DNA of 64,000 bases from Octopus vulgaris. Its lineage: Eukaryota. Shown here in pieces: positions 469 through 57,678 of this stretch. The stretch is from positions 36,208,001 through 36,272,000 of the forward strand of contig OX597824.1 in NCBI GenBank assembly GCA_951406725.2, given 5' to 3'. Position 1 is the stretch's first letter, and every line of letters begins with the position of its first letter. The position numbers and the translations under genes are program-made. A model generated the notes under the pieces. That model saw nothing but the letters and a program-made list of their open reading frames with translations, was not told the DNA's origin and made no database searches.

Positions 469-684
469 GTTTATTTTTATGGACAGAGGCATAGCAGTTT
501 AATGCCATGTGATATTATATACCATACATAAAACAATTGGAGAATCAAATTACCTTCGAGATTATTTTGAAAGTTAAATGTCCTGCTGTATATTTGTTTT
601 AGCCTTACTGGGGATCTTTTAGTTTCAGCTTAATTCTATCATGCTGTGTTCCCAGTATACCAGGAATAGCCTAGATACATAACA

Positions 685-1000
685 TGGCAGTCCTGACTAG
701 GATTATGTTACTACTTTTTAACCCTAGGAAAACATCTTTTCCACCTGATTTATCAACACATGAAATATGTCTTAGATATACTGTAAGCAAGGGGGCTCAC
801 TGCTCCCTTCTAGCCATTGGCAGTACCAGCAGACTAATGGTTTCTGGGTTATTTCACTTCCTCAGTGCTGGATAGAAGGGAGCAGTGAACCCCCTTGCTT
901 GCAGTATGTCTAGGACACAGGTCATGTGTCAATAAACCAGCTGGAAAAGATATTTTCCTGAGATTAAAAAGTAGTAACATAGTCCTAGTCAGGACTACCA
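685..1000. repeat. Fold-back/MITE-like inverted repeat (arms about 132 bp, spacer about 52 bp)
   Basis: 685..816 is the diverged reverse complement of 869..1000. Confidence 0.85.
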
Positions 1001-2009
1001 CATTATTATGTTGGCAAGTTAAAATAACTATCCAGTACTGTTACTATTTAGATTCCAAATTGGCTATTTAAATCTAACCAAGATCTACAGGATTCCCGTT
1101 AAAGCTGTAATGAACAAGAAAAAGAAGATAAAATACTATAAATAGACAACCAATCACATTGCAGCTTTGTAATGAAGTGTGTTAATAGTAGCCTACTTAG
1201 CTGTTGTTTATTTTTGTTTCTTATAAAATAACAAAAGAACGATTCTTTTGCAATGAAATGAGTGCATAATGAACCCAGAACAAAAAAGGCCAAGACTCTT
1301 TACAGTTGAGGAAATCATTGATGATATTTACTCTTAAGATGAATAACTTATCCTTATGCAGACAATAAGAGTGATGTGGACATCAAACTGGTTAAAGAGA
1401 TGAGGAAAGTAGCAATTCAGGCAAACAAATATGTTAGTTGAGAGACAGACTTATAGTTGTTATTCTCCTGAATTTTTAACCATTTTATCCGTTTGTTTGC
1501 CATCTATCATTATTCTTGAGCTGTGTACGCAACTATTTATTTTGTTTGACTCAGGAGACCAAGTGGAGGGTTAAGTTAGACAAAAGGGCACAGATCTGAG
1601 AGAGTTAATGTGAGATGGATACAATTCATATTTAAACTACAACCAGCCATCACTTGTGGCTTGGTAAGTTGCACCATGCTTTCTCTAATTGATTCAGGGA
1701 CCTCTATAGTCATTGGTAGACATAGACGCCCTCCCAATTTTCTTACAGTTGACCCTGTGAAATATTCAGAAGGTGACACCTGGAATGAGAGAAAGGGCTG
1801 CACTGGTATCCAGTTCATATTCTTTATAGATATTTATATTGGTGGATCATGAAATGAAACACCTTGCTCAAAAGGATGCAATTCATTGTTAAGTCTAAGA
1901 ATTTACCAGTAATTTTAAGAAGAAGGAATTCGTTTTTGTTTAAAATATTTTATTTCAGTAGTTTTTTTTGTGTAAATGAAATAATTATTTATTGTAAATG
2001 ACTTTCTAG

Positions 2010-7821: not shown

Positions 7822-7913
7822 CGCCTGCAGAGGGACTCGAACCCGCGACCCTCAGATAACTTCCAATGTCAGTATATAAAAGTCTGATGTTCTACAGACT
7901 GAGCTATGCAAGA
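7822..7913 (-). pseudogene. Intron-containing tRNA-Lys(TTT), probably a pseudogene
   Basis: TCTTGCATAGCTCAGTCTGTAGAACATCAGACTTTTA[19-nt intron 7858..7876]ATCTGAGGGTCGCGGGTTCGAGTCCCTCTGCAGGCG; intron at the canonical 37/38 position; mismatches at pair 1:72, in the D-arm and in the T-stem. Confidence 0.8.
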
Positions 7914-14413: not shown

Positions 14414-14500
<87 letters not shown>

Positions 14501-15851
14501 CATATATACAATAGGCTTCTATCAATTTTCGTCTACCAAATCCACTCACGAGACTTTGGTCAGCCTGAGGCTGTTGTAGAAGACACTTATCCAAGATGCC
14601 ACACAATGAGACTGAACCCAGAACTATGGGGTTGAGAAACAAACTTCTTATCGCACAATCATGCTTGTACCTACGTTTTCTTTTTTTAAGAAACATCTTG
14701 AGAAAACACAGAGTCAGACTAAAACTAGCTTGTTAGATTGGGTTAATAATTATCAATTATCATAGGCATAGGAGTGGCTATGTGGTAAGAAGCTTGCTTA
14801 TGAACCACATGGTTCTGGGTTCAGTCCCACTGCATGGCACCTTGGGCAAGTATCTTCTACTATAGCCTCGGGCTGACCAATGCCTTGTGAGTGGATTTGG
14901 TAGATGGAAACTGAAAGAAACCCATCGTATATGTGTTTATATATATGTGTATGTGTTTGTTCCCCCGCTGGTGTGCTACATCCCCATAACTTAGTGGTTC
15001 GGCAATAGAGACCAATAGAATAAGTACTAGGCTTACAAAGAATAAGTCCTGGGGTCAAATTGCAAGACTAAAGGTGGTGCTCCTGCATGGCCACAGTCAA
15101 ATGACTGAAACATGTAAAAGAGTAAATTCCTAACTATAATTAGAAATCCACTTGAGGTTAAAAATTTAAAGCATCTGAAGAATAAAAGAACATTGAGATA
15201 TCTGGAATAATGTTGTATATGCTTTATACGAGGTCTGATCAAAAAGTGTTGGAATTGTTGCTATGGTAATGGCACTAACACATACACGATAAACAAGTAT
15301 TAACATACATTCACAAGCTCTCAAATTTTCCATCTCTTTCCCTCTTTCTCTGTTTCACCTTCTGTTTCAACCCTTTCTGTTTTACCTTCTTTTATCTCTG
15401 CAAGAGGCAGTGCTCCAGCTTGGCCTCAGTCTCAATGACTAAAACAAACTAACAAACGTATGCCTGTATGCACACATTCATATATACTCATACACTTATG
15501 TACTCATACACATACACACTCATTCACATACATATCCTCATTGACGTACACATGTACACCATAAAAACAAAGGTTGAAGTTGTTTATAAGGAACCAGTAT
15601 GAGAGCCTCTGGTGCAGCTTCTCAACCTGCTGGAAATAGTTTCTAAGTCTCCCTCAAATTGCATCTTACCAACTTGAACAGGCTAATCATAGAAAAAACT
15701 AACAGAGATAGCCAGAATACTTTTAACCATAGTTCTTCTCAGCTAAAGATTAACTTGTTACTAAACAGTAACAATAATTGTTGTTCGTAGTTTTTACTTC
15801 TAACAAAATCCTCATTTTTTAATATCTTTTTGATTTCTTTTCATAATACAG

Positions 15852-17997: not shown

Positions 17998-18227
17998 ACA
18001 CACAGAAAAGAAACATAAATACTTACATATACGAACATATGCCTACATATATATGCACATATGTATCATGGCCAGTATTTCATCACTGTATTTACTGCAG
18101 CGATATTTTGACCATATCTCACTTGGAATTAAACGGCAGGCATTTTGAACTGGCCATGATGCATACGTGCATATATATGTAGGCATACATTTGTATATGT
18201 AAGTATTCGTATGTTGTATTTTTGCAC

Positions 18228-21200
18228 ATGAATTCTGCCAAATGCGAGCTTTCTTTTCAGGTACACGAAGCTACTGTCCACCGTCCCAGGGTCTCTAGAG
18301 CCCATGCCTCCCACACCCTCAGGGTTGGCACCCTCAACGTTGGCACTCTGAAAGGTAGGTCTGGTGAGATAGTCGAGATGCTTGAACGGAGATGTGTGGA
18401 TATATGTTGCATGCAAGAAATAAGGTGGAGAGGAGGATCAGCTAGGTTCCTCACAGGCAAGGAACGCAGGTACAAGATTTTCTGGGCAGGGAACACTGAC
18501 GGGGTTGGTGGCGTGGGTATACTTATCGCTGAGAAATGGGTAGATAAAGTAATTGAGGTAATCAGAGTATGTGACAGAATACTTAAGATTAGATTAGTGC
18601 TTCATCATAGTTTAGCAACCATTATATCAGCCTATGCTCCTCAGTCGGGGCTACCCGATGGACAGAAAGACCGATTCTATGACACTCTACTGCAGACTAC
18701 CTCGTTGACGAACGACAGAGACCTTATCTTTGTGGCTGGTGACTTCAATGGACGACATGCTGGAGGCTTCCATGGCGTACATGGAGGCTATGGCTATGGC
18801 TCCCGAAACGAGGAGGGAACCAGGCTGCTGGAGTTCTGCGATGCAAATAATCTTATGATTTGCAACACTAACTTCAGGAAACCTACCAGCCACCTAGTCA
18901 CTTACCGATCGGGCCAACATACCAGCCAAATTGACTACATCCTTGCAAGGCAAAGGGAGAGATGGCTGCTTATAAATGCCAAAACCTTCCCAGGTGAAGA
19001 ATGTACCCCACAACATAGACTGGTAGTTAGTGACTTTAGGATCAGGAGTAGGAGGACAACCAGAAGACGACCAATATGGAGAAGAAGGATCTGGAAGCTT
19101 AAAGATCCTGCAAATGGACAGAGATTTAGAGACATATTACTTGAAGCCTCTGACGAAGTAGAAGGGGATAGAGCATCACAGGGGGTAGAAGACAGCTGGA
19201 CGTTTCTAAGGGACAACCTGCTGAGAGCCACTGACCAGATCTGTGGCTGGTGCAAAGTCCCCTCTCGACCTAGAATAACGTGGTGGTGGAACAATATTGT
19301 AGACAGGGCTATTAGAGAAAAGAGACAGGCTTGGAAGGTCTGGAAAAATGGGGGTAGCAGGGAATTGTATCAGACTGCCAAAAGAGAAGCTAAGAGACAG
19401 GTTTATTTAGCCAGAGGGGAAGCAGATAAGAAAAAATTTGCCAATGTTCTGCGCCGTGAGGACCAAAGACTGGAGGTGTTTCGCGTTGCAAGACAGTGTG
19501 TGAGAGAGAATCGTGATGTGGTAGGAGAGAAGTGTGTTCGCATGGAAGATGGTTCACTTGCGCTAAATGAGGATGCAAAGAGAGAGGCTTGGAGATGCCA
19601 CTATGAAAGTTTGCTGAATAAAGAAAATGAATGGGATAAAGAGAGTCTGCCGAATGTTGACCCAACAGAGGGACCAGCTATCCAAGTTGATAGTTCCGTG
19701 GTAGCTAAGGCAATTAGAAGCATGAAGACAGGAAAAGCCCCAGGCCCATCAGGAATCACTGCAGAGATGCTCAAAATGTCTGGTAGTGTCGGCTATAGCC
19801 TAGTCACCCATATAGTTAATCAGGTGATACACAAAGGAGTCATACCCAATGACTGGTGTAGCAGCATAATAGTCAACTGCTACAAAGGTAAAGGTGACGC
19901 CCTAGATACAAATAATTACAGAGGTATCAAGCTGTTGGATCAGGTGATGAAGGTTACGGAGAGGGTCATAGCCCAACTAATTAGAGAGAGAGTTAGTTTA
20001 GATGAGATGCAGTTTGGGTTTGTGCCAGGGAAAAGTACTACTGATGCTATATTCCTGGTAAGGCAGCTGCAGGAGAAATACCTAGCCAAAGATAAGCCCC
20101 TGTACCTGGCTTTTGTTGACATGGAGAAAGCCTTCGACAGGGTCCCCCGATCCCTTATCTGGTGGGCAATGAGGAAACTAGGGATAGATGAATGGTTAGT
20201 GAGAGCTGTGCGGGCCATGTATAGTAGGGTGAGGGTTGGAAACGAGTACAGTGAAGAATTCCGGGTAGAGGTAGGGGTCCACCAAGGCTCAGTACTCAGC
20301 CCCCTCCTATTTATCATAGTCCTCCAGGCAATAACGGAGGAATTCAAGACAGGATGCCCTTGGGAGCTCCTCTATGCTGATGACCTTGCTCTAATTGCTG
20401 AGTCGCTATCAGAACTGGAGGAGAAGTTTCAGGTGTGGAAACAAGGATTAGAATCGAAGGGCCTCAGAGTCAATCTAGCTAAAACCAAAGTCGTAATCAG
20501 TAGGAAGGTAGACAAATCACACATGCCTTCAGGTAGATGGTCCTGCTCGATCTGTAGAAAAGGTGTAGGTAGAAACTCTATAAGATGCACCAAGTGTAAG
20601 CTATGGACACATAAGAGGTGCAGCAATGTCAAAGGAAGGCTAACTAGGAAGATGGTTTTTGTATGTGGCAGATGCTCAGGAACAATAAACACTGAAAATG
20701 CTCTGAGACCAACTTCCGTCACTTTCCAGGGAGAAAAACTAGAAATAGTTGATAGTTTCCGTTACCTAGGTGACCAAGTCAGCAGCGGGGGCGGGTGTGC
20801 TGAAAGTGTAACTGCTAGAGTAAGAATAGCTTGGGCAAAGTTCAGAGAGCTCTTACCTCTGCTGGTGACAAAAGGCCTCTCGCACAGAGTGAAAGGCAGA
20901 CTGTATGATGCGTGTGTACGAACAGCCATGCTACATGGTAGTGAAACATGGGCCGTGACTGCTGAGGATATGCGTAAGCTCGCAAGAAATGAAGCCAGTA
21001 TGCTCCAATGGATGTGTAATGTCAGTGTTCATAATCGACAGAGTGTAAGTACCTTGAGAGAAAAGCTGGACCTAAGAAGCATCAGTTGTGGTGTGCAAGA
21101 GAGACGATTGCGCTGGTATGGTCATGTGGCGAGAATGGATGAAGATAGTTGTGTGAAAAAGTGCCACACCCTAGCGGTTGAGGGAACCTGTGGAAGAGGC

Positions 21201-21329
21201 AGACCCAGGAAAACCTGGGACGAGGTGGTGGAGCACAACATTCGAACTTTAGGTCTCACTGAGGAAATGACTAGAGACCGAGTCCTATGGAAGTGTGCTG
21301 TGCGCGAGAAGACCCGGCAGGACAAGTGA
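18228..21329 (+). CDS. RTE LINE polyprotein: AP endonuclease, reverse transcriptase and PHD-like Cys/His finger
   Basis: TLNVGTL, MQEIRW, GDFNG, QIDYIL, QHRLV (APE); NYRGIKLL, QFGF, DMEKAFD, GVHQGSVLSP, LLYADD (RT); CSIC..CTKC..HKRC..CGRC; first ATG at 18228. Confidence 0.95.
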   Translation: MNSAKCELSFQVHEATVHRPRVSRAHASHTLRVGTLNVGTLKGRSGEIVEMLERRCVDICCMQEIRWRGGSARFLTGKERRYKIFWAGNTDGVGGVGILIAEKWVDKVIEVIRVCDRILKIRLVLHHSLATIISAYAPQSGLPDGQKDRFYDTLLQTTSLTNDRDLIFVAGDFNGRHAGGFHGVHGGYGYGSRNEEGTRLLEFCDANNLMICNTNFRKPTSHLVTYRSGQHTSQIDYILARQRERWLLINAKTFPGEECTPQHRLVVSDFRIRSRRTTRRRPIWRRRIWKLKDPANGQRFRDILLEASDEVEGDRASQGVEDSWTFLRDNLLRATDQICGWCKVPSRPRITWWWNNIVDRAIREKRQAWKVWKNGGSRELYQTAKREAKRQVYLARGEADKKKFANVLRREDQRLEVFRVARQCVRENRDVVGEKCVRMEDGSLALNEDAKREAWRCHYESLLNKENEWDKESLPNVDPTEGPAIQVDSSVVAKAIRSMKTGKAPGPSGITAEMLKMSGSVGYSLVTHIVNQVIHKGVIPNDWCSSIIVNCYKGKGDALDTNNYRGIKLLDQVMKVTERVIAQLIRERVSLDEMQFGFVPGKSTTDAIFLVRQLQEKYLAKDKPLYLAFVDMEKAFDRVPRSLIWWAMRKLGIDEWLVRAVRAMYSRVRVGNEYSEEFRVEVGVHQGSVLSPLLFIIVLQAITEEFKTGCPWELLYADDLALIAESLSELEEKFQVWKQGLESKGLRVNLAKTKVVISRKVDKSHMPSGRWSCSICRKGVGRNSIRCTKCKLWTHKRCSNVKGRLTRKMVFVCGRCSGTINTENALRPTSVTFQGEKLEIVDSFRYLGDQVSSGGGCAESVTARVRIAWAKFRELLPLLVTKGLSHRVKGRLYDACVRTAMLHGSETWAVTAEDMRKLARNEASMLQWMCNVSVHNRQSVSTLREKLDLRSISCGVQERRLRWYGHVARMDEDSCVKKCHTLAVEGTCGRGRPRKTWDEVVEHNIRTLGLTEEMTRDRVLWKCAVREKTRQDK

Positions 21330-23030: not shown

Positions 23031-26000
23031 ATCATCATCATTGTTTGACCGTGGTCGAGACAATGGAATTTACTATGTTACGCCAGACTTCATGGTCCAT
23101 CATAGCATTACGGAGGTCCTGTTGCTGGATGCCTGTATCCCTGGAGATTACATCAGGGTAGGAGAGTGTGCGCCCTCTGGTATTGCGAGTAGATGGCTTC
23201 CAGAGGAGAAGAGTAGAAATTACTTCTTTTTCAGCTCTACAACAATGTCCAGCAAACTGGACTCTCCTACCTTTCACAAGGGATGACACAGGTGGTAGTT
23301 TCCCATATATTTGCATTTTGGTTGGATGGCGCTTCCACGAGAGATTTTGAGCTCTCATAAGGAGGCGAGTGTAGGTTCCTTCCAACCACCTCTCAAGCTT
23401 CTTTGATAACGTCCAGGTTTCTGAGCCATATAGTAGGATTGGTTCGACTGTGGCTTTGATTATTTCAAGTTTGAAGTCTCTACTTAGATTTGATGACCAG
23501 ATCTTATGCATGTCATTACAGGCTGACCAGGCCATACCCTTTCTAGTTAGAAAGTCTTTTCCAGATGATGATATGTATGACCCAAGATATTTATAATCAG
23601 AAACCATATTTAAAGGCGCACTGTTGAGAGTATGGATGATGCAATCACTGTTGGACAGGCACTTGTTTATGTATTCAGTTTTGGCCTCATTGAGGTAAAG
23701 ACCTACACAATTTGAGGCTTGTTCAAGAGATTGTAAAAGAGACTGGGCATTGGAGAGAGAATCACCGATAAGAGCGATGTCGTCAGCAAAGACAGTGTCT
23801 GTCAAGTACTCAGCTGGGTGTCTGGAACTTCTTCTTGGTTTTATTTCAAAGCCCTTGCCAGAGATGGTATCAACTGACATACGTAGCACATAATCAACAA
23901 CAATGATGAAAAGAAATGGGGTGAGTGTGTCTCCCTGCAGTATTCTGGCTTTGATTGAGAAAGATAATGTTTCTCCGTCAGGGGTTAAGATGGTTGAAGA
24001 TGTATCTGTGTAGAGGACCTTGATGGCAGAAATGATTTTGTCTGGTATCCCATAGAGCTTAAGGATTTCAAACATCTTATACCTATCTACAGAATTGAAC
24101 GCTTTAGAAAAGTCTACAAATACCATTGCAAGATCGCGATTAAATGCTTTTGATTCTTCAATAAGTCTGCGTAGGCATAGTATCTGGCTCAGCGTTGAGC
24201 GCCCATGTCTGAATCCATTTTGGTTCTTTCGGAGCAAAGGTTCAACAAAAAGGACAAGACGATTTAGGATCAGTTTGTTGTACAGTTTTGCAGCAATTGA
24301 CATTAGAGATATACCCCTGTAGTTGGTGACGAGGGATAAATCACCGTTTTTGGGTATTGGAATGATTTGAGATTGGTGCCAAATCTTTGGAGCGACAAAG
24401 GTGGAAAGTGTGTGGTTGCAGAGGTTGAGCAAAAGTGTGTGAAATCTATCATCCTTCCAAATTACAGCTGGGATGTTGTCGGGACCAAATGTTTTCGAGG
24501 CTTTTAGTTGCTTGGTGGCTGCTGTTAGTTCAAATATGGTAAAAGGGGAGGTGTTGATGTCCAGCATGTCTGATATAGGCACACTTGGAAGAGTGGGGTT
24601 ATCAGGGATTTTGGCATTCTTCCCAAGGAGGTTTTTAAAATGGGTTGACCAATTTTCTAAACGCTTCTTAGCTGATCCCCCTTTAATTCTAATTGATGAC
24701 CCAGAATTTTTGCCTGATAGGTCTTTGATGGATTTCCAGGCGAGATGGTGTTTTTTACTAATGTGCTCTTTGGATAGTTTACTAATTTTGCCATTGATAA
24801 ATTCGACCTCGGCGTTCAAGTAAGCCTCATCAAGATTCTTCTTGGCAGCTATGAGTTGGATCTTCAGTGACTGGGATGGAGAACGGTGGTAAGCTAGTGA
24901 TATAGACTTTAGATGGTTTCTGGCTTCGATGACATTTGGGGAATTAGAAGGTTTGCTCTGGCCCCTACTCTTCTTTTTGGGAAGAGTAGCCAGTGCAACT
25001 TCCTCTGTTGATTTGATGAGGCTGCTGTATACTTCTTCAATGTTCTCAGCATCTATTTCAGAAGTAGACAGAGATTGAAATGTGTTATAGACCTCAATAG
25101 TAAATTGTTTGGACATATCGGGGTTAGATAAGACTTCCTCCCAGTCGATCATTTTCATCGGGTGAGGCTTAGTTTTTTTGGATGAGCGAAGACTAAGCTT
25201 AATGGTAGCTGATACAATTCTGTGGTCAGAGCCGACAGAACTAAAGGAAGAGTAGGATCTCGAGTCTTTAACACTATTGCGCCACTTCTTTCGAAAGATG
25301 AGGTAGTCAATTTGTGCCCTATCACCAAGTGGGGACTCAAATGTCCAAAGTTGACCTTTTGGTTTCATAAAAGAATTGTTGGAGGTGTAGAGATTAAATT
25401 CCTCCAAGAAGTCTTTGAACATTTCTCCGTTCCGATTAGTTTTAGAGTTGAAAGTAAACTTGGTCTCATCGGGTCCTAGTCTAGCATTCAGATCACCAGC
25501 TATAACTAGAAAATTATGGAGAGGTACTTGCTCAATGGTTGAACGAAGGGTTGTATAAAAATTTTCAATCTCGTCTGCCACAGACGAATTATGTGGGCTA
25601 TACACACATACCAATGTTGTTTTTGGGTTTCCATCTATCTCAAGCACCATAATTCTAGGTGAGATTGACTCTATACTCAAGAGAGTGTCACTAGCTTTTG
25701 ATGAAAGTAGAAATCCGATACCTCCAACTGTTGAATTAACAGTATTCTTTGATGCTGAGGAGGTTACAAGTTGATAAGAACCGACTTGATGGTATTTGAG
25801 GATGTTGTCAGGGTGGTAAAATCGGTGTTCTTGGACAGCTATTATATCAATGCCATGTGATTCTGCATTTGCACCAAGTTCTTCTAGACGGCCAAGAGAG
25901 CCGAGGGTGTGGGCTTTGAGGGTGCTGAGTATCGTATGATTTTTACAGCTGATGAGGTGTTTGTTTGGTGTTGTTTGGTTGGGAGCTGACTCTTCTCCAT

Positions 26001-26387
26001 CAGGTGATACCCGTCTGTTAAGATTGAGGGCATCACCGTCAATGGATGCCCTTGGAGGTGCAACATGATCAGAGACAGGACCTGGCAAAGCAGGGGCTGG
26101 ACCTACATCCGCAGGTATACCATTAGGTCTGGTTCCCTGGGGAAGAGGAACCCTGGTGCAGTTAATTGTAAATTCTATAGTCTTTTCAAATGGCTAATAA
26201 TGTGTGCACGCGCCACTACTACACGCATTGGAAAGCATTGTACAACCAAGTACTAAAGAAGATCTTTCCTCCTCCATGAAACAAAGCTGTTCCCGCTGGA
26301 CGTCAACCAGTATTTCTAAGCTACGGACCGAGTGATTTATTGTAAGGTTATCTCCCTAGATAGATTGCCTTCACTATGGCTAAGGAG
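23031..26387 (-). mobile_element. Second near-full-length RTE/RTE-X-like LINE, a different family
   Basis: 1016-aa ORF; (TGA)n tail starts at the stop codon; 5' UTR of about 300 bp (5' boundary approximate). Confidence 0.9.
23038..26088 (-). CDS. LINE APE-RT polyprotein
   Basis: AVQEHR, VYSPH, GDLNA, QIDY, SDHR (APE); NYRGISL, QNGFR, DFSKAF, ILQGDTL, FADD, YKYLGS (RT). Confidence 0.95.
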   Translation of the reverse strand: MPGPVSDHVAPPRASIDGDALNLNRRVSPDGEESAPNQTTPNKHLISCKNHTILSTLKAHTLGSLGRLEELGANAESHGIDIIAVQEHRFYHPDNILKYHQVGSYQLVTSSASKNTVNSTVGGIGFLLSSKASDTLLSIESISPRIMVLEIDGNPKTTLVCVYSPHNSSVADEIENFYTTLRSTIEQVPLHNFLVIAGDLNARLGPDETKFTFNSKTNRNGEMFKDFLEEFNLYTSNNSFMKPKGQLWTFESPLGDRAQIDYLIFRKKWRNSVKDSRSYSSFSSVGSDHRIVSATIKLSLRSSKKTKPHPMKMIDWEEVLSNPDMSKQFTIEVYNTFQSLSTSEIDAENIEEVYSSLIKSTEEVALATLPKKKSRGQSKPSNSPNVIEARNHLKSISLAYHRSPSQSLKIQLIAAKKNLDEAYLNAEVEFINGKISKLSKEHISKKHHLAWKSIKDLSGKNSGSSIRIKGGSAKKRLENWSTHFKNLLGKNAKIPDNPTLPSVPISDMLDINTSPFTIFELTAATKQLKASKTFGPDNIPAVIWKDDRFHTLLLNLCNHTLSTFVAPKIWHQSQIIPIPKNGDLSLVTNYRGISLMSIAAKLYNKLILNRLVLFVEPLLRKNQNGFRHGRSTLSQILCLRRLIEESKAFNRDLAMVFVDFSKAFNSVDRYKMFEILKLYGIPDKIISAIKVLYTDTSSTILTPDGETLSFSIKARILQGDTLTPFLFIIVVDYVLRMSVDTISGKGFEIKPRRSSRHPAEYLTDTVFADDIALIGDSLSNAQSLLQSLEQASNCVGLYLNEAKTEYINKCLSNSDCIIHTLNSAPLNMVSDYKYLGSYISSSGKDFLTRKGMAWSACNDMHKIWSSNLSRDFKLEIIKATVEPILLYGSETWTLSKKLERWLEGTYTRLLMRAQNLSWKRHPTKMQIYGKLPPVSSLVKGRRVQFAGHCCRAEKEVISTLLLWKPSTRNTRGRTLSYPDVISRDTGIQQQDLRNAMMDHEVWRNIVNSIVSTTVKQ

Positions 26388-33269: not shown

Positions 33270-33755
33270 TCTATATTTTTGAGGCAAGTAATTATGTATA
33301 TTATTTACAATGGATGAATAGGTGTCCTAGCCTTATTTGTTATCACAATGTTTCGGCTGATGTATTCTCCAGCCTTCATCAGGTGTTCTGGTGGAATTTC
33401 AAACCCAACCCTTTATTTGACTAATGGGGTACACCATTCTCATTCCTAAGGTATGTTGCTGATGTTATTTTTCTATTGATATTATATGCCTTTGGGCATA
33501 TAGCATAGTGGATAAGAGCGTAGGCTACTAACCCTCAGATTCTAAGTTCAATCCCAAGCAGGGACTTGAAAAAGAAAGTAATAACAACAGAAAAGTAACA
33601 TCAGCAACATACCTTAGGAATGAGAATGGTGTACCCCATTAGTTGAATGAAAGGTTGGATTTGAAATTCCACCAGAACACCTGATGAAGGCTGGAGAGTA
33701 CATCAGCTGAAACAACAAACAATGTGAGGACACCTATCCGTCCATTGTAAATAAT
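33270..33755. mobile_element. Palindromic Penelope-derived insertion: tRNA-like head plus a hammerhead in each arm
   Basis: Arms 33300..~33470 and ~33590..33755; HHR motifs at 33342..33387(-) and 33676..33713(+); A/B boxes at 33501..33554; 16-bp direct repeats at 33254 and 33754. Confidence 0.7.
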
Positions 33756-43639: not shown

Positions 43640-46170
43640 TCCAATAAACAATATTATTCAAATTCTTCATGGAATGCCCAGTTGACATGCAGACAATCTA
43701 CAGATAACTGCATCAAATTGTTTCCAATATCCAGTCTTATGAATGTTTCCTTAAAAATCACTCAACTCTTTCACTCAAATGCCGCATGAATTGGGATCAA
43801 AGATAATTTCACTTGATTCTGTTGGTAACTTCATCAGAATAAATAATATGAATATCCAGTTGTGCTGAAAAACTGAATTTTTTAAACAACTCATCAAAAC
43901 AGGTCACAAACTTGGGTAGCAGTCTAGTGCCTTTTGGTGCTAATTCACTCATGGTATCTGCTCTAAAAACAAAAGATGTTAAGCTGTGATTTATAATGCA
44001 GCTTAGCTTCATTGACGAGAGAAAATTCTTTGGCAATACTGCTACCAGGGAACATTGCTTGAAGCAATTCTGACATACCGCCTGAACTGTCCCAACTGTG
44101 GTGCTTGTAGACAACATGAAAGGCACACAGTATCTTACATTTAACAACTTGTTTGAATTCCCTCTTGATGACAGCTTGTACTATAGACGTGGTGGATTGA
44201 CTTGGCTTGCTTGACTGAGCAGAATTATCAGTGCTTGATGATAAGTTACATTTATTTGGTTGATTTAACGGAACAGTTTTAATCAATGTTACATCTTGAA
44301 ACTCCAGAATCGACAGAACTGGCAGCAGATGTTGAGTTTCCAGAGATGGAAACAGAATTCTTATGTATACCACTTGTTTCTGTTAAAATTCTATTATCTG
44401 GCAAGAGGCCCTTCAATGTGCAATTTTATTGCACTGGTAACTATCTTGTTCAAATTAAGCTTACCACTCTTAGAAATTCTGCAAATAATATCATCAGCAA
44501 AACCAGTAGAAACTGGCTGGATCCATCTAGTAATATCCAGATACAGGGAACTGTTTTCCCTATCTGTATTGTATTGAGTTTTTCCTGGAACTCTCATTAT
44601 CTTATCCTGAGAAAAATGAGAGAAAGAAAGATGTTAGTACCGTTTAACAAAGTAAACAAGTAACACCCCAAAAAGTTTACATATGACATGTAAAAATTGA
44701 AAAAAATGTTAAAAAAAAAATTGACAGGTGTGGCTGTGAAGGTGCAGGTGTGGGTTTGTGGTAAGGAATTTGTTTCTCAACCACATGGTTCTAGGTTCAG
44801 TCTTACTGCATGGCACCTTGAGTTTTTTTCCATTATACTCTCAGGCTGACCAAAGCCTTGTGAGTGGATTTGGTAGATAGAAACTGAAAGAAGCCCATCA
44901 AGTATATGCACACACATATCTTTATATTTCTTTTTCCTTGCCAACTAAACACACGCACAATATATATATGAGACTTGTTTATTATTGTTCTGATTTTATG
45001 TCCATTGTCTGGAAATCTTTTGCCACACATCCTGTGACTTCTTCAACGACTATCCATCCCCTATATTTCCTGCTCTGTTTAGTCCATTCTAAACGTGAGA
45101 TGAGTAGCTGAAGCGGTTATGGGATGTGTGACAAAAGATTTTTGGACAATGGACATACAATAAGAACAACGATAGACAAGTGAAGAACGAATATATAGTG
45201 TGTGTATTTATTTGTGAAGAAAAAAAAAATGGCCATCCTGAAATATAACAATATCTGTTACAACACATGATTTCACATCAGGAATATTGCAAAACAAATA
45301 TATAAACGTATATATACTTAAAAGTACAAAGTGAGATAGGGGTTATGAGTGTAATCCACTATGGGATATCAGTTATCCAATATACTGCTGGTGAAGCACC
45401 CAAATGCCAAATACATATATGCTTATAATTGCAATGCAATTAATCCATTTATTGTATCAGATAGGTGAAGGTAAAATATTTTACCTCAAATTCATAATAC
45501 AAACAAGAAAATGGAGGAACAAATTCATTTCAATCATCGATTTACAGATATTACCAATTCATATTATTTATTAACTACATAAATAGGAACATCTAAATCC
45601 AACAAAACAAAACAAAGGATGTTCCTATTTATGTAGTTAATAAATAATATGAATTGGTAATATCTGTAAGTTGATGATTGAAATGAATTTGTTCCTCCAT
45701 TTTCTTATTTGTATTATAAACGTATATATACTTATATATATGTGTGTGTCTTTGTGTCTTTATATGTACCCCACCACCGTTGACCATGAGTGTTGGTGTG
45801 TTTACGTCCCTTTAACTTAGTGATTCAACAGAAACGATCCCAATGGAACAGGTATCTGAATATGTCATGGTATAGGATGCAGAATGTTGTCTTAGGACTG
45901 TGACTTCCTCTTTTCAATGATGAGTTTCCAGAGATGGAGACAGAATTATTATGTATGCCACTTATTTCTGTTAAAATTCTATTATTTGGCAAGAGACCCT
46001 TCATGTGCGATTTTATGAAGGATATCAACCAGTCACCAAAAAGTATACTGAACACTAAGTTATTTTCTGTTACTATATCAAGTCAGTGTTTCTCTAACCA
46101 ATAAAATATTAGCTTCTTTAAAGCTCAACAGATGGTGTTACAAGATTTTATGCAACTGGCAGATGTGAAA
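43640..46170 (-). mobile_element. Degenerate hAT-like transposase, interrupted by younger insertions
   Basis: SELLQAMFPGSSIAKEFS, IINHSL, FVTCFDE..QLDIHIIY, SQFM, QLSVDCLHVNW (SMDGPNVN-like); BED-finger-like remnant IKSHMKG near 46000. Confidence 0.65.
45321..45717. mobile_element. Insertion with an internal 100-bp-arm hairpin and a 20-bp target-site duplication
   Basis: Arms 45494..45593 and 45618..45717; TATAAACGTATATATACTTA at both 45301..45320 and 45715..45734. Confidence 0.8.
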
Positions 46171-46676: not shown

Positions 46677-47090
46677 CCACAAGTCCAGATCTGTTGCAAT
46701 GACCCACAAGTCCAGATCTGTTGCAATGACCCACGAGTCCAGATCTGTTGCAATGACCCACGGCTCCAGATCTGTTGCAATGACCCACGAGTCCAGATCT
46801 GCTGCAATGACCCACGGGTCCAGATCTGTTGCAATGACCCACGAGTCCAGATCTGCTGCAATGGCCCGCAAGTCCAGATCTGTTGCAATGACCAGCAAGC
46901 CCAGATCTGCTGCAATGGCCCACAAGTCCAGATCTGTTGCAATGACCCACAAGTCCAGATCTGTTGCAATGACCCACAAGTCCAGATCTGTTGCAATGAC
47001 CCACAAGTCCAGATCTGCTGCAATGGCCCACAAGTCCAGATCTGCTGCAATGGCCCACAAGTCCAGATCTGTTGCAATGGCCCACAAGTC
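46677..47090. repeat. 27-bp minisatellite, about 15 copies
   Basis: Unit CCACAAGTCCAGATCTGTTGCAATGAC; contiguous, no spacers. Confidence 0.97.
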
Positions 47091-48232: not shown

Positions 48233-49256
48233 CATCATTGTTTAACGTCCACCTTCCATGCTGGCATGGGTTGGACAGTTACAACTAGTACCCTCCATAA
48301 AGGGGTTAGGGAATGATTAGAAATGGAAGCAGATTTGAGATGAGCCTCTAGTCTCATGTTGACAAGAACATGACGACTCTCCAAAGCTTGTGCCATGATA
48401 AAAAGTACTCAATACACCTTGTAAATCGTTGGTCATAGGAAGGGCACCGGTTTATGAGGGAAGGGCTCCCAATAAGTACTTGAGCCATGGCAATTCATCT
48501 AACTCATGCCAGTATGGAAAGCAGACATAAAAACAGTGAAGATGGTGATGGTGATGATGTTAACATTAACAGCATTGTACTTTCCAAATCTATGCTGAAT
48601 CATTACCCACTGGAATTTAAGGTTGCAACAGTATTTCCATCTACTTTGTCTGGCTTCTACATCAAATCATGTCCAGCTTGGCTGGACCTGTTTGGTATAA
48701 TACATTTAATGTTTGGAGTCAAGCAGGCACAGGAACTTTTTCTTCACAAATTTAATCTTTTTTTTTTCATATTTCTCTTCAAATGCAAAACTCACCCAGT
48801 ATTCAATTCTCTCCTTAATAACTGCAACCCCATGAACATTGTAATGATGTGTGTATGTGTTGGCATGTAAAAGCACCCACTATACTCTTGGAGTGGTTGG
48901 CATTAGGAAGGGCATCCAACTGTAGAAACTCTGCCAGATCAGATTGGAGCCTGGTGCAGCCATCTGGTTTGCAAGTCCTCAGGCAAATCGTCCAACCCAT
49001 GCCAGCATGGAAAGCGGACATTGAACGATGATGATATATATATATATATATATGGATGTGTGTATTTTCCCCTTGTTTACAATTAACATGGAAAAAATAA
49101 ATAAACAGTTACCAGGGCAGCAAAAAATCACACAAGTAATAAGGACGTAACACCCTGTTTGTGAAGGTAGAAACTCTGGGTTGATGTGAAATATTTTATA
49201 TAATATATATAAATAAATAAATGGAGTTAAATGCAAGTGTTATTCAAATTCTGTTA

Positions 49257-49342
49257 CTTCCGACATGTTTCGAAGACAACACTGGTATTATTCCAAAAGG
49301 AATAAAATGGTGTAAAACAATATAATCTTCTCATCAGGGAAA
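49257..49342 (-). ncRNA. Intact minimal type-I hammerhead ribozyme
   Basis: tttcc-CTGATGA-gaaga[extended hairpin]tcttc-GAAA-CAT-GTC-ggaag; palindromic stem III ACATGT; GUC triplet at 49262..49264. Confidence 0.82.
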
Positions 49343-49968
49343 GAAAGAAAGAAACCAAACTCATCAATAAGACATTTTAACAGAATGTGATGGATGTGTA
49401 TAATTATGAATGGAACGCTATTAAGTTTTTTTTTTTAAAAACTGTTAGAAGATATAATGTCAAAGGTAGCCTATAGAAAGAGGAGGGGTAAAGGAAAGAA
49501 ATATGTAGAAAACTAATAAAGGAGAAATATAGAGCGATATGTGAATTAAAATAAAAGCTTAAAGGCTTGGAAATAGATATATCTAGTTGAAGTTAAATGT
49601 AAGAAGAAAATCAATGTTCAAATTATATAGAATGGTAGATATCACTTATATGAACTAAAAGTATACCTTTAGTTCATATAAGTGATATCTACCATTATAT
49701 ATAATTTGAATATTGATTTTCTTCTTACATTTCACTTCTACCAAATATATCTATTTCCAAGCCTTTAATTCACATATTACTCTATATTTCTCCTTATTAG
49801 TTTTTCTGCTTATTTCTTTCCTTTATCCCTTCTCTTTCTATAGGGCTACCTTTGACGTTATATCTTCTAACGTTTTTAAAAAAAACAACTTAATAGCGTT
49901 CCATTCATAATTATACACATCCATCACCTGTTAAAATGCCTTATTGATGAGTTTGGTTTCTTTCTTTC

Positions 49969-50056
49969 TTTCCCTGATGAGAAGATTACATTGTTTTACA
50001 CCATTTTATTCCTTTTGGAATAATACCAATGTTGTCTTCGAAACATATGCCAGAAG
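49969..50056 (+). ncRNA. Mutated partner hammerhead
   Basis: Same motif but GAAACATATGCC (GUC changed to GCC) and a stem I mismatch. Confidence 0.65.
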
Positions 50057-50099
50057 TAAAAGAATTTGAATAACACCTGCGTTTAACTCCATTTATTTA

Positions 50100-50131
<32 letters not shown>

Positions 50132-52877
50132 CACATACACACATATATATATATATATCATATCCCTCTACCAAATTCCTGCAGTTTCCTTCAGTTACTT
50201 TCATTATCACTAAATTAACTTCTAGCAGGAAGAAAAATGCAAGAAGATGCAGTACAAATGTTTACCAATAATGATGCTAAAGTTTTCAGAAGGCCAATAT
50301 TTGTCTCATTATAACAGCAAGAATTTTTGTACAGATTCCTGAAGATGTTGAAGTACTGTTGGGAATATCATAGTCTTTGATGATCTTCCTTAGTGATTCC
50401 ATGTGGATGTTCTTAAAGGCCTTTTAAGCTCCATCAAATAATCTGACAAAACTTGCTAGAACTCTATGTCCCATTCTATGATGTTTCTCAATGGGAAAAA
50501 TTTGCTCAGTAATGTGTAAATGGACCTGATACTAAGCTCTTTTTCTGTAAACAGGAGGACTGATCTTTGACAGATTAAGTTTCTGTTATTTTTGGAGCCT
50601 GCAAACTCCCTGACAATGAGGTACAGTATTATAGTATCATTCCTACAACCTATGTTTTCTGCTTCTTGCAACTATCTTTCCTGTTATTCCTTTTTGTCAG
50701 TTTTGCCATGCCACTTTACCGAGCAGTCTAATTTCTAGTATTCTACAGCAATTTATTCTCTCTCCTCTGCTGGTATTTCCTCCTGTTTTACACAATCCCA
50801 CAAAGACCAGTTAAGTTCCATGATCCTTCTCTTTCACCCTAGACCATCCTTTGTAATTGCCCTCTTTTCTACATGTTACCTTGAACAAAGACCACATAGA
50901 GCAGTGAGACTTTTAAGACAAGGCGCTTCACATATATCACAAATCAACATGGTCCTCTGTCATCAACTTCATCAGATATGACATCTTGAGATCATTTGTT
51001 ACTACACTGTTCCAAGTCTTTCAGCACTCAACCCTATCTTTATGCAGCTGTCCTCCATACACAGCACCTGCCCATACAAGTGCAGTCCTGCTGTACACAA
51101 CATCTGATTTTTCTTTTACTCTGTCACTCAGTTCATCATTCAAGTTCACTAACATGACACAGGGTTACATGGTGGTATAGATACATTTTTAATTCTTTCT
51201 TTCTCCATTATAATTGCATGCACCAAGCCTCCCACTGAATATAAATAATATCCCCAATGTGAAAATGAGCTATATTCCCAAGGACACAACTTCATTACTC
51301 CAACCAACCGACAAAGGCATATTATCAGAAAATAATTTTGAAACAACATTTTGAGAAAATATTGAAGAATTTTTAGCAAAGAGTTTAAATAAATCAATTA
51401 ATATTGAAAAGCTATTCCGCAACCATTAAAAAATTTTTTTTATTATTATCAGATGTCTGCAATTGTGAAACAGAGAAAACATATGCATTTACTACATTAC
51501 AAATTCCATATTTCAAAAAATCTTGCTGTGATGAAAAATTCTGTGGTGCAATATCTGTTTATCATTGATTTCAAAGTTATAAATTGAGATGTGTTTTTAA
51601 TGGAATATGAAAATAAGGGCTAAAACAAGGAATACACCTATTTTGATGTGAGAATATATTAACACTTTAGTATTCAGATCACTCTGTCAAATATAATGCT
51701 TATTTATTCATATTTTTTCGAATTAATTCTACTTTATTTCGTGGCTTTGAGATTTCAATGATGTCATCATCATCATCGTTTAATGTCCGTTTTCCGTGCT
51801 AGCACGGGTTGGATGGTTGGACGGGTTGGATGTGATTGTTTATTTTTAGAATAACATTGTAAGGTAGGTTTGAGAGGCTGGATATAGCCAGTTTGAACAC
51901 AAAACAGGTAGAATAGCGCCAAGTATGGCTGGTTTAAATGCTAAACGGTTAATTAAAAAAAAAAAAAATATCCACATTATACAGTCTCTATGTATAAAAA
52001 GAATTGAAGAGAAATGTACAACATAAAAATTACAAGAGGTGTTTATAATGAGTTCAGTTCCTACACTGCAGTGTACAAAGAGATGCTACATTCTAAATGA
52101 GTAATGACAATATATAAGTTATTTACTCCTGCTGCTGAAGATAGTGCCCCTCTCCCTTCAATGAACTCTCATTACACCTTCCCCAATTACACAGTTATTA
52201 ACATTATTTGTAATCTGCACACACTGTACTATATTATGGTAGTTTTATTATTTCCTGCACTATTTATATACATACTGTATAGAGTGTGTGTGTGGTTAAC
52301 AATTAATATATACATGCATAAAAGTGGTCATATTCCTTGTTCTTACTTTTTTTTCTATGAAAATTCAGTTAAAACCCATCTCATGGATATTGACCCTTTT
52401 GTTACCATATTCCTTTTGAAATATACTTTGCTTCAATTAATTCGGAAAATTATGAAAAATTTATTAAAATAACTTGGTCTATATTAAGCTGGTATTTGGA
52501 ACATAAATTAACATGAAATCTTAATGAAAGATTTTCATTTAGATCACTTTAAGACATGAATTTTGGATTAAAAAATCTGGGGTGCTTTGGGGCAGATTGG
52601 TATTCGAAAGGTTAATAGTAAAATAGATTTCACAGAATTTCACGTGATAGCAAAATGTCGAGGAACACAGAATTCTGTAATGTGGGTGATGCCATTATTT
52701 TCTCTATATTTCTGTGGTTAAGTATATCTCAACTGGCAATTGGAGATGCAAGACAAAATGGTTAGCTGAATGGTATTTCGATATAAATTGATTTCTTTAA
52801 ACATCCTGCAAAAGCTTCATCAATATTTTCTTAAAATTTTGAGATTCAAATTTGATATGTTTAAAAAATTTAGTAAA

Positions 52878-53028
52878 TTAGTCCCTGAACCGCAGTACTA
52901 AACAATTACAGCTCTCTTCTTGTTTAAGACCAAACTTATTGTAGAAAGGTATCAGTTCCATTTTACATTCTAAGGAGATCTTATAGCAACCCAGCTTTTG
53001 ACTTCTTTCAATTAAGATATCAACCAAC
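52878..53028 (-). CDS. GNPNAT1: Glucosamine-6-phosphate N-acetyltransferase, terminal exon
   Basis: LVDILIERSQKLGCYKISLECKMELIPFYNKFGLKQEESCNCLVLRFRD*; GNA1 motif CYK..LEC..FY.KFG. Confidence 0.95.
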
Positions 53029-54594
53029 CTGTTGAGGAAAAAATAACAACAGATGTAAATTAGAAAGCAAGAATTATTTATCAATTAATTGGGCTTGTTT
53101 AATCTACATATATTTGAGAGAAATGAAATAGAACAAACTGAAATGTTGGCCAAACAGTTGCAGGGTTTCCAGAAACAGTAATTTATATTGGCAAAGAAAC
53201 AAATGGTATTGTTTTCATTAATTTACTCTTTGGCTACAAGACTCAGCCACTGATCAGCTGAACATTTAGAAGCTGACACCTCCTAGGTCAAGGAAAATAG
53301 GGAAATTAGCTATTGGATTCTTGTTTTAGTTTATCTTATTATACTATAGAAACTTAATTAGGTTTGAGGTTCTGGTGGTTCTAGACAAAATAAACTCTTA
53401 AACTATTGTAGCAGATCTATAAGGAGCAGCTGATAAGAATGTGCTGAGAAAGAAAAACAAACATTTGGTGAAACTGGGCTCTTACTGTGTGGCTGATATA
53501 AGAATCTCAAAGACATTCTGTCACACCCAACAGAGATCTGACATTGTTCAAAGTAAACCTGTTGAAAATCCTTAATAATTAGTGTTATGTGTTTCTGGTC
53601 AATCAGTTTTGGTTTGGTTAGTGACAGTATTAAATGACCAGGTAATTTGATAAAAATACCAGTATTTTACCAACATTATTAATAAGGATCTATCAATGGA
53701 AGCATCTGCAACTGAAACAAGTGTATTAAAAACAGAAGTTCGCCAGACTCTAAAAATCAAGTCCTTCGGAAATCTATATTGCAAATAAATTCAGAAATAT
53801 TATTATATTATTATTGTTGTCATTATTATTGTTGTTGTTGTTGTTGTTATAATTATTATTATGCTAGTAAATACTAATTTAGTTAGCAGGTATGTCTCCA
53901 CAAATCTCAAGAATTTCCTTAGGGTTCTTATAGAATATAGGATGGTACTTTTCTGCAGGTTATCATTGCCGTTTTTCCCTCAACCTTTAAAGCACAAAAC
54001 GACCACTAAAAGTTCTCCCTAAATGTCTAACTATTTGAACAACATTGATGTAACAAGAAACACAGAAATCATTTCCTATTTCTAAAAGATTGTATAGGTA
54101 GAAGAAATATCTAAAGAGTAAATATTTTCTAGTAATTTGAGTCATCATCATCATCATCATTTAACGTCCACTTTCTATGTTGGCATGGACTGGACGATTT
54201 TACTGAGGACTGGCGAACCAGATGGCTGCACCAGGTTCCAATCTGATCTGGCAGAGTTTCTACAGCTGGATGCCCTTCCTAACGCCAACCACTCCAAGAG
54301 TATAGTGGTTGCTTTCATGTGCCACCGGCACAAGAGCCAGTCAGGCGGTACTGGCAACGGCCATGCTCAAGTGGTGATTTTTACGTGCCACCTGCACAGG
54401 AGCCAGTCCAGCGGCATTGGCAATGACCTCACTCAAAAAATCCTAAATATCAAAATTTTGAATGCAAAAACACTTAAAAGTCTTTAAGGTTTCCTGGATT
54501 TATATGAAAACAATGTAATGATACGGACATGATGCAACTAAGCTATTAAACAGTTAAAGAAATAAATGAAAAAAAGTCCCTTTATCATACTTAC

Positions 54595-54656
54595 AATTTT
54601 CCTAATTGTTGCCCCCGGTAGTCATTTTTAATAACTACATCTTCTATTCTTCCACG
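54595..54656 (-). CDS. GNPNAT1: GNPNAT1 coding exon
   Basis: RGRIEDVVIKNDYRGQQLGK(L); GNAT acetyl-CoA motif A; 62 nt with AG/GT boundaries. Confidence 0.97.
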
Positions 54657-54982
54657 CTAAAAAAACAAACAAAATAATTACTTGATACAGAAGGGATTTA
54701 TAGTAAAATTTCGTATTTTATGAAAATCAAAACTATACTCGAAATTAGCAGTTTAAACACTATTATAATAGAGGTTAGATAATGGTTGTGAATAGCCTAG
54801 CTAAAGATATGGGCCAAAAATTGATAACATTATGCATTATATATATATAAACATTTAAATAATGAGGGAGATAAATTGATTAATTTAATTAATATCAATT
54901 TAAAACCAGTAGCCTAGCATACAAAAATCTGAAAAAACAGAGAAAATTCTAATACATATGTATATTTTAAGGTTTTTAGCCC

Positions 54983-56637: not shown

Positions 56638-56768
56638 ACTTGAGGTATTGTGAATAAATTTCTGTTCAATAACAAGCGTAGCACTGCCAATTATTAACCC
56701 CGTGCTCGTATCTTCTATCACAACTATATAATATGTGTTAGAACAAGACTTCATGGAATTAAATCGAG
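56638..56768 (-). CDS. GNPNAT1: GNPNAT1 coding exon
   Basis: RFNSMKSCSNTYYIVVIEDTSTGLIIGSATLVIEQKFIHNTSS; 131 nt. Confidence 0.97.
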
Positions 56769-57678
56769 CTAGAAGTAATTAAAAGAAAAAAAAAAACAAT
56801 ATTAAAAAAATATTAAAAGAAAACTTTGTTCTTAGGATCATTTTCAGCATGTCATTATGGTATAGGGTACACATATATATATATATGTGTATGAAGGTGT
56901 ATAGCCTAGTGGCAATGGTGTTGCACTCATGATTGCTAGATCATGGGTCTGATTCCTGGACTGGGTGGTGTGTTGTGTTCTTGAGCAAAACACTTCATTT
57001 TACGTTGTCCTGTGGGTGGAAGTGAGGCAGAATCATCGGCATGTCAGTAGAAATGTTTGTGGCTCTTTACATTCTGAGTTCAAAGCCTAGTACTTATTCT
57101 ATCAGTCTATTTTGCCAAACTGTTAAGTTACGGGGACGTAAACACACCAGCATTGGTTGTCAAGTGATGTTGGGAGAGGGGGGGGGACAAACATACAAAC
57201 ATATACACACACATACATATATATACATATATACGACGGGCTTCTTTCAGTTTTTGTCTACCAAATCCACTCACAAGGCTTTGGTCGGGCTGAGGCTATA
57301 GTAGAAGACGCTTGCCCAAGGTGCAACGCAGTGGGACTGAACCCAGAACCATGTGGTTGGTAACCAAGCCACTTAACACACAGCCACTCCTGCACCTATA
57401 TATATAGACATATATATATATATATATATCATCATTGTTTAACGTCCGTCTTCCACTCTCAACAAGGATAGCTGGTCCCTCTGTTGGGTTCCTATAGGGG
57501 AGATTGCCTTTTCCCCATTCATTATCCACATTTAATAGTCTTTCATAATAGCACTTCCACGTGTATTTCTTTTCAGAGTCATTAAGTGCAAGCATACCAT
57601 TATTCAGCTATACACACTTTTCACCCACAACATCTCAATTCTTCTTGGCACATTGACTAGTGATCCCAAACACCTCTT

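Follow-up and report, generated by a model that had tools for sequence, protein, structure and literature searches.

A palindrome of about 910 bp lies downstream of a GNPNAT1-like gene of Octopus vulgaris and carries, in the same sense as the gene, what looks like a complete hammerhead ribozyme. Does this motif act on the host transcript, or is it a remnant of the element that brought it there? We analysed a 64-kb window, that is, the whole stretch of DNA around the palindrome, starting from a sequence-only reading that had proposed an RNA switch in which the long fold-back hides the hammerhead. Our answer, held with good confidence, is that the palindrome consists of two 5′-truncated 3′ ends of a Penelope-like element (PLE), set head to head in a (TA)n tract and since decayed, and that the hammerhead was inherited with them and is likely silent. 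Nothing we found points to a co-opted hammerhead; the locus is to be read as ordinary genomic debris, not as an RNA switch. Among titles and abstract openings of the literature on PLE hammerheads, octopus, inverted pLTRs and tails, and UTR editing, searched by these topics and not by gene name, no paper dealt with this locus.

The insertion and its flanks comprise the following features:
49197–49664 (−): left arm, the 5′-truncated 3′ end of a Penelope-like element
49054–49196 (−): element tail of about 145 nt, the "long end", on the left copy only, followed by (TA)n
49663–50115 (+): right arm, a second 5′-truncated copy with its stop codon at 49683–49685 and a tail-less "short end"
49663–49664 (unstranded): head-to-head junction, both copies cut at the same family base and having a self-complementary AT in common
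49034–49053 (unstranded): left (TA)n flank, abutting the end of a SINE-like dispersed repeat (48861–49035)
50110–50163 (unstranded): right (TA)n/(CA)n flank

The palindrome is as the earlier reading described it. The arms abut at 49663|49664 with a spacer of 0, and pairwise alignment of 49224–49663 with the right arm found 399 matching and 23 mismatching positions plus 7 gaps totalling 22 columns, an arm-to-arm divergence of 5.5%; complementarity extends through the (TAAA)n/(TA)n ends to a total of about 910 bp. With this level of mismatch and gapping, extrusion of a full-length cruciform would be less likely here than in a perfect palindrome. What had been missed is that the left arm runs on for about 145 nt past the palindrome as the element tail. 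The family stop codon sits 20 bases inside each arm, so that an arm holds the last seven codons and the 3′ UTR: in the left arm, which shares 90% identity with the 3′ terminus of a longer copy (L025), the stop at 49644–49642 is followed by the 3′ UTR/pLTR with the hammerhead, while the right copy finishes at a (TTTA)n run and then (TA)n.

Searching one arm against its own genome (2.8 Gb) returned 2,659 first-look candidates, with full-length matches of 88–92% among the 40 that were scored. At 30 fetched loci, homology ended sharply outward and continued past the palindrome centre in a stepwise ladder, a thinning that therefore points to 5′ truncation of the copies; the longer copies contain broken frames with RT and GIY-YIG-like motifs. 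Across 100 loci we distinguished 105 family 3′ ends (50 short, 49 long and 6 intermediate), a count that is not a random sample of the family, the loci having been chosen by likeness to the window's arm, ribozyme or RT region. Within this sample, 29 head-to-head pairings were found at 27 loci, two of which give two pairings each: 26 join a short end to a long end, two join long to long, and one joins intermediate to short (binomial p = 1.5e-6 for 26 of 28 classifiable pairings under even pairing). The window insertion itself is long plus short, and near-spacerless centres were also seen at L039, L060, L062 and L087. By a rough pattern, a TA-type repeat began within 6 nt of 33/50 short and 28/49 long ends.

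The two arms lie 3.7% and 4.8% from the family majority, compared with a median distance of 8% to 50 other rows; one other copy equals the right arm in its distance to the left arm (5.5%). In a star-like tree built from 51 arm copies the two arms stayed unpaired (joint clade of 36 rows, support 0.45), and a single variant was private to both arms (0/49 others). The arms show no sign of homogenisation, and a single template is likely for both. At another locus (L038; G000:C3:169873232–169875105), two direct arm copies 1.4 kb apart differ at 1/431 sites, both being 6% from the family majority; this pair represents a recent local duplication or an assembly duplicate.

The protein of the element was approached through a sister family (about 82%) whose open frames are long, reaching 778 residues from stop to stop in L064:
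L064:739–3072: PLE protein frame

Broken copies belonging to the same family as the window arms match the L064 protein at 47–90%. The frame contains SDKTG at 124, YRDD at 356, SIY/YIG at 659/674 and, C-terminally, CLLCNSE at 738 and CKH at 766 (CxxC..E/N..CxH), and in both L064 and L059 direct repeats lie on both sides of the ORF (pLTR arrangement). A Pfam search with L064 and L066 gave zero family matches, and a PDB search with L064 alone or with a 13-row profile gave chance matches only. One search found 11 relatives of L064 and another 8,231 at E 0.001; among 50 aligned relatives, five match RVT_1 (best 1.6e-4) and five match GIY-YIG (best 9e-4) in Pfam, and the best PDB match of a profile of relatives is a retron RT (E 0.006). 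A fragment from L025 matched GIY-YIG at E 0.007, under the cut-off. By eye, L064 resembles the printed Hydra-1_Obim protein over the N-terminal and RT parts.

Copies of the family and its sister, as distinct from the window stub, thus have the organisation of EN+ PLEs: a single ORF with RT followed by a C-terminal GIY-YIG, direct pLTRs plus an inverted 5′-truncated copy, a tail at one end, and a hammerhead in the pLTR. Several features agree with the Hydra clade, namely DKT for DKG, insertion into (TA)n (at both window flanks), absence of CCHH (by eye in the alignment), and CxxC and CxH flanking a conserved E and N. For the N-terminal RWK, L064 reads RIRWL and most relatives RW[KR]; the CxCX5C linker before the endonuclease is absent from L064 and L066, and 10 of 11 relatives have a CxC..CP..C form. 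Placement was by motifs rather than by a tree with reference PLEs. We class the element as Hydra-like and read its linker as lost, stopping short of calling it a proven member of the Hydra clade. The Cys-rich linker is thought to guide (TA)n targeting. L064 lacks it and has Asn-rich stretches there instead, yet the family sits in (TA)n.

These likenesses follow the Hydra-clade description in the available text of Craig et al. 2021 (PMC8557442), which gives DKT, CxxC..E and N..CxH, and no CCHH. Hydra-clade PLEs as presented there share with the octopus element a single ORF of RT and C-terminal GIY-YIG with DKT and CxxC/CxH and without CCHH, as well as a type I hammerhead with a palindromic stem III near the 3′ end and (TA)n targets; among them, Penelope-13_HM has a 5′-truncated inverted copy. 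The differences are the missing CxCX5C linker and RWL for RWK in L064, a tail of about 145 nt where 30–40 bp is described, and a structured loop II of 47 nt where the listed Hydra motifs have 3–9 nt. Hydra-1_Obim, from Octopus bimaculoides, is listed in the supplement of PMC8557442 as inserted in (TA)n; its ribozyme sequence differs from that of the window family, which is therefore another family.

Both copies were likely laid down in one insertion and have since decayed. The endonuclease would nick both strands of the (TA)n target, and reverse transcription would start twice, at the element's two internal start sites, giving the long end on the left and the short end on the right. Both cDNAs would end at one common base close to the ORF stop, to be joined through the 2-nt AT overlap; alternatively, the join could arise by fold-back self-priming at the AT, which would suit a symmetric case such as the window's and has been proposed for Penelope junctions (in the available part of PMC3846280). 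The layout is a known Penelope footprint, of which this locus is one further example: an inverted 5′-truncated copy with a tail at one end is described in the accessible sections of PMC8557442, palindromes at PLE copy junctions are reported in those of PMC3846280, and two RT start sites generate the tail in a lizard PLE (PMC11167929). Taken together, the Penelope elements of Adineta vaga, as far as PMC3846280 is available, and Poseidon of Anolis (PMC11167929) offer the same head-to-head inverted copies with a palindromic junction, the optional tail on one end and two preferred 3′ ends. Unlike there, the two window copies are truncated at one common base, which makes the whole insert palindromic and leaves it without an ORF body, and the short/long pairing is near-strict in the octopus family sample. 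This pairing (26/29) is a testable constraint on how PLE inversions form.

Whether host RNA enters the palindrome depends on the gene upstream, for which three features matter:
52878–53028 (−): last coding exon of the GNPNAT1-like gene, stop at 52880–52878, spliced to exon 54594–54656
50170–52877 (−): long 3′ UTR of the GNPNAT1-like gene, 2.7 kb, from contigs of spliced runs
50092–50109 (−): overlapping AATAAA, four in all, supplied by the (TTTA)n end of the right arm, then CA and GU/U-rich bases; a candidate poly(A) signal

Exons 56638–56769 and 52881–53027 match glucosamine-6-phosphate N-acetyltransferases in PDB (E 4e-8 and 2e-7); a GNAT-family search of the genome missed the gene's short exons. 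The stop codon lies 2,778 nt from the near arm's end and 3,616 nt from the predicted cut site. For expression, we compared four runs from four studies, out of 24 listed, over 49620–54900. None of the 24 is on record as RNA; X1, X2 and X11 (three studies) were taken as RNA given a splice joint at 53026–54593 (CT..AC) and a near-empty intron, and X12 is of DNA type. Contig depth in X1, X2 and X11 was about 50–80 from 53026 down to 50170, as against 0–3 in the last intron; this cover consists of several pieces, none of them spanning, with a break at a SINE-like repeat near 51760–51830, and its continuity is inferred from similar depth. Of the earlier proposal, the long 3′ UTR thus stands, reaching at least 50170 and so the (TA)n flank at the near edge of the palindrome, whereas an mRNA that reaches the ribozyme finds no support, four AATAAA lying at the palindrome entry.

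We lean towards the GNPNAT1 mRNA ending at the right arm's AATAAA run, which lies some 25 nt inside that arm; the cut site follows about 840 nt further on. Four such hexamers are carried by 2/63 family short-end sites, the window's included. Much of the RNA evidently continues past seven AATAAA located further upstream in the UTR, and therefore a hexamer run alone does not prove an mRNA end. Poly(A) signals donated by TAAA runs of transposable elements are known in dogs, where, in the available text of PMC11699766, Can-SINEs likewise provide overlapping AATAAA from a retroelement TAAA run at the far end of a 3′ UTR; here, unlike there, the candidate signal lies on the antisense strand of the PLE end.

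A different outcome, which we consider doubtful, is that GNPNAT1 transcripts in substantial proportion run through both arms and form a fold-back of about 440 bp for ADAR or Dicer, with the hammerhead as a locked passenger. Such read-through is compatible with a PLE origin and competes with it solely on where the mRNA ends. UTR cover of about 50× extends to 50170, the last place where contigs fit before the repeat; the predicted uninterrupted helices of a two-arm RNA are 118, 41 and 31 bp long; and T>C differences at 52796–52798, seen in spliced runs but missing from the DNA run, suggest editing elsewhere on the mRNA. Against this stand the four overlapping AATAAA with their U/GU-rich downstream bases at the entry, and the arms themselves yielded none of the editing-like differences specific to them among those listed at 95% likeness, which is a weak test. 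Depth over 49620–49973 in X1, X2 and X11 was 0–21 vs about 50 in the UTR (0, 0 and 3.5 at 49843). This low arm cover is at most a weak hint of termination and was not counted as evidence, because the DNA-run contig also breaks at 50170, with the repeat stretch skipped, and because a strong or hyper-edited hairpin could escape libraries or fall below 95% likeness. A depth of about 50 near 50000–50015 in X2 and X11 is mixed with other family copies and uninformative. The locus is a clean case of a PLE fold-back at an expressed 3′ UTR end, setting a donated poly(A) signal against a long dsRNA.

Site by site, 52797 and 52798 read T>C on the plus strand (A>G on GNPNAT1 mRNA) in X1, X2 and X11, and 52796, 51399 and 51413 read T>C on the plus strand in X11 only; all are absent from the DNA-type X12. 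Positions 52796–52798 lie 80 nt after the stop within a predicted 12-bp local stem, and are candidate A-to-I sites on a comparison of spliced runs with a DNA run from unmatched individuals.

The palindrome holds two versions of the ribozyme sequence:
49257–49342 (−): full-core type I hammerhead motif; its loop II is structured (47 nt), its palindromic stem III shortened
49969–50056 (+): broken hammerhead copy, GCC for GUC and the first stem I pair lost

As previously claimed, every core nucleotide is present on the minus strand, in a dimer-type arrangement sense to GNPNAT1: CUGAUGA at 49337–49331, GAAA at 49271–49268, ACAUGU, and GUC at 49264–49262, with predicted cleavage at 49262|49261. The motif has the CUGANGA, GAAA and NUH elements and the stems I and II of a type I hammerhead, and a type I descriptor search of both strands of the window returned it as the sole match; Rfam gave no hammerhead match here, either at the gathering score or at E up to 10. 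Stem I pairs 49342–49338 with 49261–49257 over 5 bp, the outer pair being U-G. Stem II is present as described, at 6 bp rather than 5, the sixth pair being U-G, and loop II holds a second 6-bp helix and a 7-bp hairpin. On the opposite strand, the expected inactivation is confirmed by GCC at 50049–50051, to which the loss of the first stem I pair (A at 50052) is added. Rfam miRNA-family matches at the palindrome centre fell below the gathering score and merely reflect the mirror hairpin shape.

The motif had been called the best-preserved ribozyme. Its core does look complete; its stem III is shortened, so that it is not the family's best-preserved form. ACAUGU represents a 2-nt deletion, overlooked earlier, from the family's ACAUAUGU, and the predicted dimer helix weakens to −4.6 kcal/mol from −7.0 for the family form. 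As a monomer, stem III would consist of 2 bp around a 2-nt loop, short of a stable stem, and only a dimer duplex is possible. Minimal dimer-type PLE hammerheads, as described in the available part of PMC4209133, likewise have a short stem I, a long stem II, G10.1–C11.1 and a palindromic stem III; the window motif differs from them in having no unpaired base between A9 and stem II and in the extension of stem II by further helices. Pairs of hammerheads on opposite strands 100–700 bp apart have already been noted there (Cervera and de la Pena 2014, PMC4209133).

Predicted folds depend on which RNA is made. An isolated 96-nt ribozyme region folds with stems I and II and the two loop II helices (z −1.9; 9/200 shuffles as good), with predicted probabilities of 0.43–0.78 for stem I and 0.85–0.98 for stem II, and a short RNA with the left arm alone could fold the hammerhead, stems I and II being favoured in the prediction. 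The proposed sequestration in read-through RNA agrees with the predicted fold of a 971-nt RNA spanning both arms (−634 kcal/mol), in which 16/16 checked core and cut-site bases pair with the other arm (P ≥ 0.97) and the probability of stem I is negligible. Minus-strand transcription makes the antisense arm first, which would pair with the ribozyme. The ribozyme is predicted not to cut, and is likely silent at this locus, because stem III needs a second same-sense copy, none of which lies near, and because the antisense arm is made first. In the accessible text of PMC4209133, metazoan PLE hammerheads in vitro do not cleave as monomers and cleave poorly as dimers; the motif of a lizard PLE cleaved only in the presence of its protein and proved dispensable for insertion in vitro (PMC11167929).

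Across the family, exact intact-core patterns occur genome-wide in 67 copies with the 8-nt stem III and in 2 with the window's 6-nt form (controls 0), and 29/68 sampled copies retain the full core together with the closing G-C and 4 bp or more of stem I. Because subfamilies differ at position 7 (U/A/G) and in one stem I base pair that has switched on both sides, from C-G to U-A, the motif is, by comparative criteria, genuine at the family level. In the 53 of 68 aligned ribozyme regions at ≥87% identity, the core changed at 26/579 sites (4.5%) vs 244/4203 (5.8%) for the rest (p = 0.21), with stems at 4.8%; across these regions the core decays like its flanks, and no selection is visible on this hammerhead copy.

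These figures weigh on the switch first proposed, in which the hammerhead was co-opted to cut or end the GNPNAT1 transcript under control of the hairpin, and which we regard as highly improbable. The full set of core nucleotides, the sense orientation and the long UTR speak for it; with 29/68 copies equally complete and 67 intact matches in the genome, however, one intact sense copy needs no selection. A second same-strand copy that could act as dimer partner was sought within the window and none was found, the predicted sequestration in read-through RNA is total, and the deletion in stem III makes for a weaker predicted dimer helix. An elaboration that we hold to be just as improbable has the mRNA crossing the palindrome and ADAR editing or unwinding freeing the ribozyme, which would then cut as a dimer with a transcript of the same family. 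If true, host mRNA stability would depend on editing and on retrotransposon RNA levels; a PLE hammerhead cutting a host mRNA under editing control would, if shown, be the first co-opted PLE hammerhead known to us.

The sister family (L058–L070; e.g. L064:3250–3420) has CCGAAGA in place of CUGANGA in 15/16 parsed ribozyme regions (21 rows listed), together with near-identical arms (97–99.6%) and long open frames. It is apparently a younger family of PLEs whose spread occurred with a broken core, consistent with dispensable cleavage.

That several near-spacerless palindromes exist in the family could instead suggest a MITE-like or foldback DNA element, or a non-coding retrozyme, moving as a palindromic unit. 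This is very unlikely and largely refuted: truncation points differ between copies, spacers in head-to-head pairs range from none to >3 kb, the copies do not have both ends in common, and most are single or asymmetric and continue into the RT/EN frame. Metazoan non-LTR retrozymes, in the available text of PMC7229834, resemble the window element in having a type I hammerhead in a low-GC repeat; they consist of tandem monomers of 150–450 bp, whereas the window element forms no tandem array and is continuous with a coding PLE. Related families could figure in the supplements of a retrozyme preprint (bioRxiv 10.64898/2026.07.22.740005). A fold-back chimera in the assembly is scarcely credible: the centre is unbridged among the contigs listed, but a read chimera would not yield 23 arm differences, 7 gaps and two distinct family-typical ends, and an independent run of DNA type supplies a contig of 102 nt, at single-copy depth, that agrees with 49815–49916 but for one difference.

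Four other inverted repeats in the window (679–1006, 14484–14952, 33349–33714 and 45491–45720; spacers 24–89 nt) are unrelated to the Penelope-like family and lack a full hammerhead by pattern search. Elsewhere in the window, a tRNA-like match at 7822–7913 (−) (34.8 bits, with a 20-nt anticodon-loop insert) adjoins a 62-bp tandem repeat and is possibly a SINE head. A 27-bp tandem array of 15 copies at 46677–47090 is open in several frames, and open frames of about 1,050 residues at 18183–21329 (+) and 23038–26193 (−) resemble, by eye, a LINE endonuclease and RT.
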